A stretch of 64,000 nucleotides of DNA from Escherichia coli O127:H6 str. E2348/69 (GTDB lineage: Bacteria > Pseudomonadota > Gammaproteobacteria > Enterobacterales > Enterobacteriaceae): assembly GCF_000026545.1 (NCBI RefSeq), contig NC_011601.1; one strand, written 5' to 3'. Of this stretch, positions 1 through 3,000 are shown in pieces (position 1 is the first letter of the stretch; every line of letters starts with the position of its first letter). The position numbers were made by a program.

Positions 1-3000
1 GGCCGTGGCAGGATGTCAAGGGGCTGGATGAAGTGGGCAGTGATACAGGCAGAACAGGAGAATGACATGAATATACTAAAAAAACTTATGCAGCGTCTGT
101 GTGGTTGCGGAAAGCATGATGGCCGTGAACACGTGCAGTCGCTTACAGCACAACTGCGACTGGGGCCGGCAGACATCCTGGAGTCAGATGAGAATGGCAT
201 TATTCCGGAGCAGGACAGGGTAATCACACAGGTGGTGATACTGGATACAGATAAAAAGCTGATACAGTGTGTGGTAAGACCGCTGCAAATCCTGCGTGCT
301 GACGGGACGTGGGAAAATATTGGCGGGATGAAGTAACCCGACAGCTTCACAAAACCGGAGTCCGGCTCCGGTTTTTGTTGTCATGTATAGGGGATATTTG
401 TTATTAGAGTGTGAAGTAATAAACATGTTAATACGATGGAGTGAAGGATGCCTTTAAGGAGCAGTGATATGTCCATCTTGTTCCCTGGAGGGGGAATCAT
501 AAATTCTGATTGCGACCGAGGCATGGAACACTACTGTAGTTCAGGGAAGTTCGGCGATGAAGCTCATTCTTGCGACGCGTAATTATTATCTGGAATATGG
601 TTTGCGTTTGTTACTGAAAGGATGCCGTGTAATTCTGGCTCAAGAATTTTTTATGCCGGAGAATCGCAGGGTTATTCTGGATAGTAAAGAATCCTGGTTA
701 ATAATCTGTGATAGTCAGTTGGGCCATTTAATGCGCAGCATGTTTCAGGGACGCCGTTTTATTCAGCTGGATCTGGAAGCGTTGAAAGGGGGACATGATA
801 TACATAATGCTGTGCGTAACAGATTGTGGACCTGGAACAAAAAAGCACGGGCACTGACGATGTCAGAGATGGTGGTGATGTTTGGATATATCTACCGTCA
901 GTTGCGTCCGTCCCATCTCGCCAGTGAGATGAGGGTAAACATAAAAACAGTTAACACTTTCCTGTATTCAGGGCTGGCGAAAAATGGGCTCAAAAGAAGT
1001 AGTGTAAGGTTGCTGGCAATTTCTGAGAACAAGCGAATAGGGCATTATTCCGGAGCAGGACAGGGTAATCACGCAGGTGGTGATACTGGATGCGGATAAA
1101 AAGCCGATACAGTGCGTGGTGAGGCCGCTGCAAATTCGGTGTGCTGATGGGACGAGGGAAAAATTTGTGGATGACATTTGTTGTGGACCTTTAAGTCTGG
1201 AGTTCAAATTAAAACAGGGAGCTTTATTATGCCATTAACCTCAGATATTAATTCATCTTCGTTCCATCTTGGAATGGAATTTGTAAAAAAACGCCACAGG
1301 CATCAGGAATATAAGAAGGTGTCTGTGGTTGACAGGTTTCAGATGACTTGAGGGCGTCTTTATGTAACTGAATTTTTCTGTGGAGATGCTGTCTGAAAAT
1401 ATTTGATTAAAAACGGAAGCTAAGTTAAATAGTAAGTTTATTTTTTGAGCTTAGGTGTATGTGTTTAGAATTTTTCTGGTGTGTTTGTTTTGTGGGGGAT
1501 TTTAGGAAAAAAATATTAATCCTTATTAATAATAGCCGTCATCCATTTCAGCTATTATTTTAAAATAAACAAGTTAAAGCTTAGACTCTTGTTTCTTGGA
1601 TTATATCAACGGTATCAACATAATTTGATGGGTTATGATGTGGTGAGTTATTGCTTTCGATATTGATGACCACATCCTCTGGATTTGGATGCCGTTGTCC
1701 AACAGATACACCTTCTTCCATTGCGCGTATATCAGCCCCTGTGGCATGTTCAATATCTGCTTTATTTGGGAAAATGGCACCTTCTCTTGCATGCCACCAT
1801 ATACGAGGATAGTCAGTGAATCTGGCCTCTCCAAACTCGGCCTTGTTTAAATCAGCCAGTCCAAGAGTAGTACCTGCCCACCATAAAATAGTGTCTGGCT
1901 TTAATCCGGGGGTATTATACTGTATGGCATGCCCCGCTGCTTGCCCAACCATTGCACCGATATGAGGACTTAACATTGGATCTGTACCAGTAAATCTGGA
2001 TACTGCAAATCCCCCTACAGCACCAAGCGCATTTGCGGCAGCATTGGTAAGAACGGCATATTTAGTATTAGGGTTATCTAAATCCCACTTGAAATGTGCG
2101 CCAAACTCCAGCCCTAGAGTTGCCTGTAGTGGAGATGCACCATATTTAAAATCTGCTTCTCCCGGTCTGATCACCCACTCTTCAGTATAATTTGCTTTGG
2201 GGCCATCAGGAGTAAGAGGAGTTTCTCCAACAAGCTTCCATCCATTTTCAGTTTTGACTATAGGAAGTTCCACACCATGATTACGAACTACTTGAGCTGT
2301 TAATCCAAACCATGGTATTGGGTCTTTTGACGCGGTGGTTACCGTCGAAGTAGTGGCTGATGCAATAGTGGATGCAGCAGTCGATACAGTGGTTGGTATA
2401 TTGCTGTTGCTTAATGCATTTTTTAATGGACCAGGAAGGTCTTTAAAATTAATACCTATTTCATCATGCAAAGGGAATATCTGTAAAAAATAATTACCTG
2501 ATGTAGGATGAATATCTGGTTTTACAATGTTTAGCTGGACACCATATTTACCAGAGATACCCGGAACGGTGCTGGGTATTTCTAATGCCATCTGAGAGAC
2601 ATTGAATAAACCAAACATATCCAATGCTTTTTTTCCTGCAGAGCCTTCTTCAAGATGAGGTGCAAGATATTTATCCAGCCCAGAGAGCAGACCTTCATCT
2701 TTTATCAAGCTCAGTAGAGCTGTTGTTTCACCGCATTCCGGTGCATGTCGCTGCATATCCTCTGGGATATGAACAACAAATCCCGTTTCGCATCCATTAG
2801 GTAATTCGGATTGCGGTATTTGTGTAGGGGACGTTTGTTCTGCGTGATGATGTCGATTGTTTTGTGTGGTGATTCCGGATGTTACGATCGGTTGAATGTT
2901 CATGATAAATCCTTATTGCATGTTTATATCCATTAATAATATCAATCCATTGATATTATTAGTGTCACATATCCGATGTGGACAGCTTTATATATAGCTG

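Follow-up and report, generated by a model that had tools for sequence, protein, structure and literature searches.

The closest described relatives of the gene considered here are found in adhesin loci. In uropathogenic Escherichia coli (UPEC) CFT073, tosE lies directly 3' of the adhesin gene tosA in the tos operon of the island PAI-aspV, the gene order of which is tosRCBDAEF (PMC5956150); according to Engstrom et al. (2014), as cited in PMC5956150, TosE and its partner TosF suppress motility. In the prophages of strain ECOR-9, the ORF-156 genes are located 3' of the eib genes for immunoglobulin-binding trimeric autotransporters. We analyzed a stretch of 64,000 nucleotides (the window) from enteropathogenic E. 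coli (EPEC) O127:H6 str. E2348/69, bases 1–1400 of which are a 100% match to the chromosome of this strain, and considered two open reading frames (ORFs) at its beginning, 13–336 (107 aa) and 557–1099 (180 aa). The original prediction had placed them at the head of an effector cargo and regarded them as a possible regulatory module, formed by a small protein of no recognizable family and a LuxR-like regulator that may be inactive. Both ORFs are real and lie on the plus strand, and the position at the head of the cargo was confirmed, as an nleG remnant, nleA, nleH1-2 and nleF come after them. According to the RefSeq annotation, the locus is the right end of the lambdoid prophage PP6. We consider it likely that the region 13–1099 is a junction between the last structural gene of this prophage and the first gene of its cargo, and that the second gene encodes an intact orphan regulator of the TosE/ORF-156 family, which would have lost an eib-type partner and received its 3' tail from a copy of a tail-fibre gene.

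The relationship of the 180-aa protein to TosE was established through the protein P0050 (160 aa), a relative found in an exhaustive profile search (E = 4.4e-32) and encoded directly 3' of tosA in CFT073. The genes in this region of CFT073 encode, in order, a PapB-family regulator, TolC, the ATPase of a type I secretion system (T1SS), HlyD, a 1610-aa repeat protein, P0050, and a second protein with a helix-turn-helix (HTH) domain. Since this order agrees with tosRCBDAEF, P0050 was taken to be TosE, an identity assigned by operon position. Direct BLASTP comparison of the regulator with TosE gave 29% identity over 151 aa (E = 9e-26), whereas no similarity to TosF was found. The homology is full-length despite the difference in size (160 vs. 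180 aa), and the layout predicted for TosE is the same, including a weak HTH signal of the LuxR/sigma-r4 type. The two differ in their surroundings: TosE belongs to a UPEC island, directly follows an adhesin gene and has TosF as a partner, whereas the regulator belongs to an EPEC prophage, has only a probable adhesin relic upstream and has no TosF-type second LuxR gene 3' of it in either our ORF calls or RefSeq. Furthermore, the last 19 residues of the regulator come from a tail-fibre gene fragment.

The second anchor of the family is ORF-156. The protein P0023 (157 aa) is 98.7% identical to ORF-156E, the product of the gene that follows eibE in phage P-EibE of ECOR-9, and phrog_6585 matched the regulator over positions 1–155 of 156 (E = 1e-91). 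ORF-156 proteins share 59–68% identity with the regulator and, like it, are encoded in prophage cargo after tail-fibre genes. However, they end at 156–160 aa rather than 180 aa, and their genes follow eib after a stem-loop, whereas at the regulator locus both the eib gene and the hairpin are gone. The family is small: among 1.84 billion representative proteins, the exhaustive profile search returned only 37 relatives at E ≤ 0.001, many of which are fragments. This search reached distant relatives, whereas none were added when the family alignment was used in a word-indexed protein search; all the named sources in the word-indexed searches were E. coli, with the exception of one Citrobacter protein. 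The family joins three separate observations: the eib genes are followed by ORF-156, tosA is followed by tosE, and effector loci contain orphan copies. A hypothetical protein of the prototype EPEC strain also gains a name and a lead that can be tested, namely control of motility or adhesion in the manner of TosE.

The usual place of the TosE/ORF-156 family is the last gene of an adhesin unit. In prophage cargo, relatives were found about 85 bp 3' of small YadA-anchor trimeric autotransporter genes, and the same neighborhood recurs on plasmids and in an island; other relatives adjoin an RTX-repeat gene, T1SS genes, or the end of a plasmid fimbrial cluster. In P-EibE, 34 nt separate the annotated stem-loop from the start codon of ORF-156E, and this spacing leads us to infer that transcription reading through from the adhesin promoter is needed for expression; members of the family are probably transcribed in this way. 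Directly 5' of the regulator, no adhesin gene is present on the same strand, and what is found there is no more than a probable, decayed trace of the 3' end of an eib gene. Judging by their description, AutA and AutR of avian pathogenic E. coli (APEC) are alike in concept, being kinase-less LuxR/GerE regulators encoded beside the autotransporter adhesin UpaB; they bind the adhesin gene at its promoter, as well as many further targets, and regulate them (PMC4844996). A gene with PAPS_reduct and DUF3440 domains (L026 9559–9678, L027 9548–9667) was observed about 6 kb from the gene for the TosE-like protein P0049. This gene presumably resembles that of IbrA; IbrAB are reported activators of eib genes, and a functional link of the IbrA-like gene to P0049 is possible.

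The view that the second gene encodes a LuxR-like regulator is upheld by both structure prediction and family profiles. Two AlphaFold models of the protein agree with each other (the better one has a pLDDT of 85 and a pTM of 0.79), and both contain four or five beta-alpha units (residues 1–95), four helices (102–154) and a disordered tail from residue 158. The feature at 557–1099 can thus be described as a receiver-like domain (approximately residues 1–95), an HTH domain (approximately 100–155) and a disordered tail (158–180). In Foldseek comparisons of both models with the PDB, the top-ranked matches were all response regulators of the NarL/FixJ type (among them RcsB, EvgA, FixJ, StyR, LiaR, DosR, and VpsT), with probabilities up to 1.00. 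A profile of 20 relatives matched GerE (1fse) with an E-value of 2.3e-4, followed by the DNA-binding domains of VraR, EvgA, NarL, and DosR. The plasmid homolog L014, which shares 32% identity with the regulator over 153 residues (E = 2e-28), clears the gathering score of the Pfam family GerE (32.9 bits, against a cut-off of 23.5). A GerE/NarL-type HTH is therefore matched at both the profile and the fold level for the C-terminal domain, and the regulator has a predicted LuxR-type DNA-binding domain.

In having a receiver-like domain followed by a four-helix LuxR/GerE HTH, the protein is similar to NarL/FixJ regulators and to small orphan LuxR-type regulators (RcsB, EvgA, and GerE). GadE and EcpR are also small orphan regulators of the LuxR type, and RcsB forms pairs with several small proteins of this type. 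The regulator differs from NarL/FixJ proteins in its short receiver-like domain (about 95 aa, with no alpha-5), in the lack of an adjoining kinase, and in the residues at the presumed position of the acidic pair. D52, directly after strand 3, is invariant across the TosE/ORF-156 family, and T7-R8-N9 occupy the site after strand 1 where the acidic pair is expected, as judged by the order of strands in the model and not by structural superposition. As the receiver-like domain appears to have no Mg2+-binding acidic pair, activity is probably not set by phosphorylation. No histidine kinase gene is annotated beside the regulator in RefSeq, its neighbors being tail-fibre and effector genes. The models suggest that the regulator is probably of the phosphorylation-independent, pseudo-receiver type, and it may bind DNA without needing phosphorylation.

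The loss of an adhesin partner is suggested by the stretch immediately upstream of the regulator, 448–556 on the plus strand. The nucleotide homology between the regulator gene and its eib-linked paralogs starts at the start codon. In the closest paralog, P0003 (193 aa, 66% identity), the upstream 110 nt could also be aligned with the window, without gaps. The same P0003 stretch aligns in turn with the last eib codons and the bases following them, with a score of 32 against 16 ± 2.3 for shuffled sequences (0 of 1000 reached it). Direct comparison of the upstream region of the window with eib 3' ends was not significant, and the link is transitive, through P0003. In a multiple alignment, a 42-nt hairpin segment is absent from both orphans, the window copy and P0003. 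With moderate confidence, we interpret 448–556 as what probably remains, in decayed form, of the 3' end of an eib-type (YadA-anchor) adhesin gene; that gene would have been deleted in the E2348/69 lineage except for this trace. This stretch also reads as a 44-aa ORF (448–582) that overlaps the start of the regulator. As a gene or leader peptide it was rejected: it has no family match, carries a premature stop in L002 (strain C7), and aligns with the eib tail through the intermediate. The Stx1a phage locus L024 has as many differences in 448–556 as L002.

At the other end of the gene, a direct repeat of 127 nt, 196–322 and 1041–1167 (89% identity), was detected by a repeat search and by self-BLAST, far beyond chance expectation. 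Its first copy is the 3' half of the first gene (67–336), which belongs to the phage fibre C-terminal family (hereafter fibre-C), and its second copy is a partial, degenerate second copy of fibre-C, within which RefSeq annotates a fibre-C pseudogene fragment at 1041–1160. As had been noted before, the regulator ORF ends inside this degenerate repeat, with its stop at 1099; read in another frame, the second copy encodes codons 162–180 of the regulator and the stop. Conservation within the family extends to about residue 155, and several of its proteins terminate at 156–157; no conserved residue is therefore lost at the junction. Residues 158–176/180 have a pLDDT below 50 in both models. The suspicion that such an ending may render the regulator inactive was not supported, since only the disordered residues 162–180 are affected and the same 180-aa protein is intact in five of the five other loci compared and on at least 1000 contigs.

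We propose that tail-fibre regions of prophages recombined with each other and that the 3' end of the regulator was thereby joined to the second, partial copy of fibre-C; only the non-conserved tail would have been replaced. The tail of P0003 retains residual similarity to the fibre-C fragment (score of 28, against 15.4 ± 2.1 for shuffled sequences, with a maximum of 26), which suggests that the fibre-C junction is older than the split of the two orphans. A third fibre-C fragment, consisting of the 3' end of the gene and downstream bases, was observed at 4546–4685 of the window, just 5' of nleH1-2, and is 93% identical to 265–403. Fibre-C fragments seem to bound the modules of the cargo, which is what shuffling by recombination between the tail-fibre regions of prophages would be expected to produce.

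Sequence conservation suggests that the regulator has been maintained. Among members of the TosE/ORF-156 family, dN/dS is 0.10–0.28 in pairs with unsaturated dS, a range that indicates purifying selection on the family. Between the regulator and P0003, which appears to have the same orphaned layout, dN/dS is 0.24, and hence constraint appears to have gone on after the loss of the adhesin. The full regulator gene was found in 114 of 5426 complete genomes, about 2% of the complete E. coli genomes. In the other five loci, the 180-aa ORF is intact, with 0–1 differences in 484 nt. Across the six loci including the window, the regulator core (557–1040) shows 0–1 nucleotide differences, whereas the fibre-C gene and the spacer (67–447) differ by 3–11%. 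This mosaic divergence suggests a recent spread of the cassette across prophages.

Several points weigh against the reading of the second gene as an intact regulator of an adhesin-derived family. The regulator protein itself matched no Pfam family even at E ≤ 10, including Response_reg and GerE (PF00196), and in NCBIfam it gave only a sub-threshold match to the C-terminal domain of EvgA. The Foldseek E-values were only about 2e-3, with TM-scores not exceeding 0.43; we attribute the low TM-scores to a domain arrangement different from that of response regulators. The case for an eib relic depends on one intermediate sequence, P0003. TosE itself is poorly defined, and a literature search on E2348C_1439, E2348C_1440 and E2348C_1441 returned no paper. 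Between the terminator of the fibre-C gene and the start codon of the regulator, no sigma-70-like promoter was found even at 8 of 12 matches, and expression of the regulator in E2348/69 is therefore putative. Finally, in O157:H7 and the Stx2 phages the gene is reduced to a deletion remnant, for which a 62-aa protein is annotated, and the regulator is thus dispensable there.

Some of these points would also fit an ORF that is a silent, decaying leftover, orphaned when the adhesin was lost and having neither a promoter nor a present function in E2348/69. The missing promoter-like site, the strong terminator ahead of the regulator and the deletion of most of the gene in O157 and Stx phages are consistent with this, and the ORF lies among relics (the nleG remnant, an integrase pseudogene, and fibre-C fragments). 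RefSeq, moreover, marks only 653–802 of the 180-aa ORF, as "hypothetical protein, pseudogene." However, this call appears to be an artefact, because its reference is the 62-aa remnant (L004 3536–3724) of the O157:H7 and Stx2 phages. In addition, the near-invariance of the intact ORF in all six loci, the exact protein on so many contigs and the constraint relative to P0003 after adhesin loss are difficult to reconcile with decay, and we consider a silent leftover unlikely. We therefore retain the view of an intact orphan; speculatively, it might be transcribed from an unrecognized promoter or by transcripts reading through from the late operon of the phage. If the orphan is active, it would be one more horizontally acquired regulator in the virulence network of EPEC and enterohemorrhagic E. 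coli (EHEC), and if it is inactive, it would be a well-preserved relic illustrating the shuffling of cargo modules at tail-fibre gene fragments.

By analogy with TosE and TosF, the most likely role of the regulator is adhesin-linked cross-regulation, such as motility control, and it may act on motility or surface genes. The location of the gene raises another explanation, in which it would be a prophage-borne controller of the T3SS (type III secretion system), of the enterocyte effacement locus (LEE) or of nle expression, kept for its place at the head of the effector cargo. An nleG remnant, nleA, nleH and nleF follow it in E2348/69, nleG and espJ are its neighbors in other strains, its paralogs P0003 and P0040 are located near PerC-family and EspG genes, and prophage regulators of T3SS exist (PMC10877973). 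Among the latter, PsrA and PsrB of EHEC O157 are prophage-encoded secretion regulators of the AraC/XylS type (PMC10877973), which share with the present gene the prophage location and the association with effector loci but differ in family (AraC/XylS HTH). A PsrA/PsrB homolog was ruled out for this locus, as the regulator has no AraC-type match and has the LuxR-type fold. Hence the known Psr regulators are unrelated to it, while the ancestral and commonest partners of its family are adhesins rather than effectors, and co-location in exchangeable cargo may only reflect recombination at fibre-C fragments. Overall, we judge a dedicated T3SS controller to be quite improbable, although some link of the regulator to effector or LEE genes is possible.

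PerC-family genes and a fragment of EspG (L017 73–366, L018 232–504, L019 8700–8897) were observed at a distance of a few kb at most from the genes for P0003 and P0040 (164 aa), in surroundings that are other virulence islands of attaching-effacing strains. A broader scenario, which we regard as doubtful, is that regulators of the TosE/ORF-156 type originated at the ends of adhesin operons and that some have been captured as stand-alone genes in exchangeable effector regions of attaching-effacing E. coli (beside nleG/nleA/espJ for the EPEC regulator and beside PerC/EspG for its paralogs) and kept under purifying selection since, the EPEC copy actively tying prophage cargo to motility, adhesion or LEE. 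If true, this would define a so far unrecognized class of horizontally acquired virulence regulators.

The first gene proved to be of a different kind. Its product matched the Pfam family PF06820 (Phage_fiber_C) over model positions 1–64 of 64, with 117.8 bits (cut-off of 25) and E = 2.7e-34, and phrog_576, "tail fiber protein," over 89 of 89 positions (E = 2e-58); the proposed lack of a recognizable family was thus not borne out. The length of 107 aa did not hold either. The stop codon of the upstream tail-fibre gene is at 63–65, and ATG 13 consequently falls within that gene, whereas ATG 67 is preceded by AGGAG 7 nt upstream and is the start in the RefSeq call (67–336). As many as 996 contigs carry the 89-aa form, whereas the 107-aa form is limited to 2. 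The start that gives 107 aa is very probably wrong and the real one is ATG 67, the gene at 67–336 on the plus strand encoding a free-standing PfC-domain tail-fibre protein of 89 aa, for which the PF06820 match has an E-value of 1.8e-34. The record is corrected for both genes: the first is an ordinary tail-fibre gene, and the "pseudogene" call for the second is an artefact.

The upstream tail-fibre gene, of which the 3' end occupies 1–65 on the plus strand, encodes a collagen-like side tail-fibre protein of 425 aa, which contains phage_tail_N (PfN), Collagen and its own Phage_fiber_C domain according to a Pfam search with the full protein. This domain architecture matches that of EPclA, the collagen-like prophage fibre in which PfC forms a C-terminal trimeric globule (PMC3368898). 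With the PfC domain of this upstream fibre (gene at L001 4788–6065), the 89-aa protein shares 35% identity, which marks it as a free-standing paralog of the fibre C-terminal domain. The collagen-like fibre already ends in a PfC trimerization domain, and the additional paralog may serve as a tip component or an assembly factor.

Directly 3' of the fibre-C gene, an intrinsic terminator is predicted at 351–380 on the plus strand, comprising the hairpin AAAACCGGAG-TCCGG-CTCCGGTTTT (351–375; stem AAAACCGGAG / CTCCGGTTTT with a 5-nt loop) and a T-run. RNAfold gave −23.0 kcal/mol for the 59-nt stretch 337–395. A consensus terminator scan missed the hairpin, probably because the T-run was counted into the stem. 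The first gene would be part of the phage late operon and has this strong terminator at its end.

The two genes do not form a pair: the first encodes a tail-fibre protein unrelated to the second, which leaves no two-gene regulatory module, and the hairpin terminator and 220 nt lie between them. Fibre-C sequence was found in 736 of the 5426 complete genomes, the full regulator in only the 114 given above. That the genes are adjacent on the same strand, with fibre-C sequence on either side of the regulator, might nevertheless point to a single phage module in which the regulator controls tail-fibre or late-gene expression. However, homologs of the regulator occur away from phages (in the tos operon, on plasmids and in islands), fibre-C genes mostly lack an adjoining regulator, and the terminator separates the two genes, so that we find a common phage module hardly credible.

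In the RefSeq annotation, the order before the first gene is gpJ, a Lom-family gene and the 425-aa protein, annotated as "prophage tail fiber N-terminal domain." The 89-aa fibre-C protein is annotated as "tail fiber C-terminal domain." Its gene is followed by three short fragments of pseudogenes, by nleA, which lies on the minus strand, and by a broken integrase, and then by a further fibre-C fragment, nleH1-2, nleF and an IS256 remnant. NleA corresponds to E2348C_1442 of prophage PP6 (PMC3891560). Minus-strand ORFs at 184–426 and 968–1207 had no match in the family search, an Rfam scan of window bases 1–5000 found nothing, and neither of the two proteins matched the PADLOC defence models. The next cargo module, outside the region considered here, is marked at 1229–1351 on the plus strand by a 5' remnant of an nleG-family effector gene, in which 17 of the first 22 codons agree with those of an intact NleG found in strain C7; at this site, about 544 bp more are present in related genomes whose "DUF1076" gene is intact. 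Within the cargo region, between nleA and nleH, a frameshifted tyrosine recombinase pseudogene (3558–4552) hints at a former integrative element.

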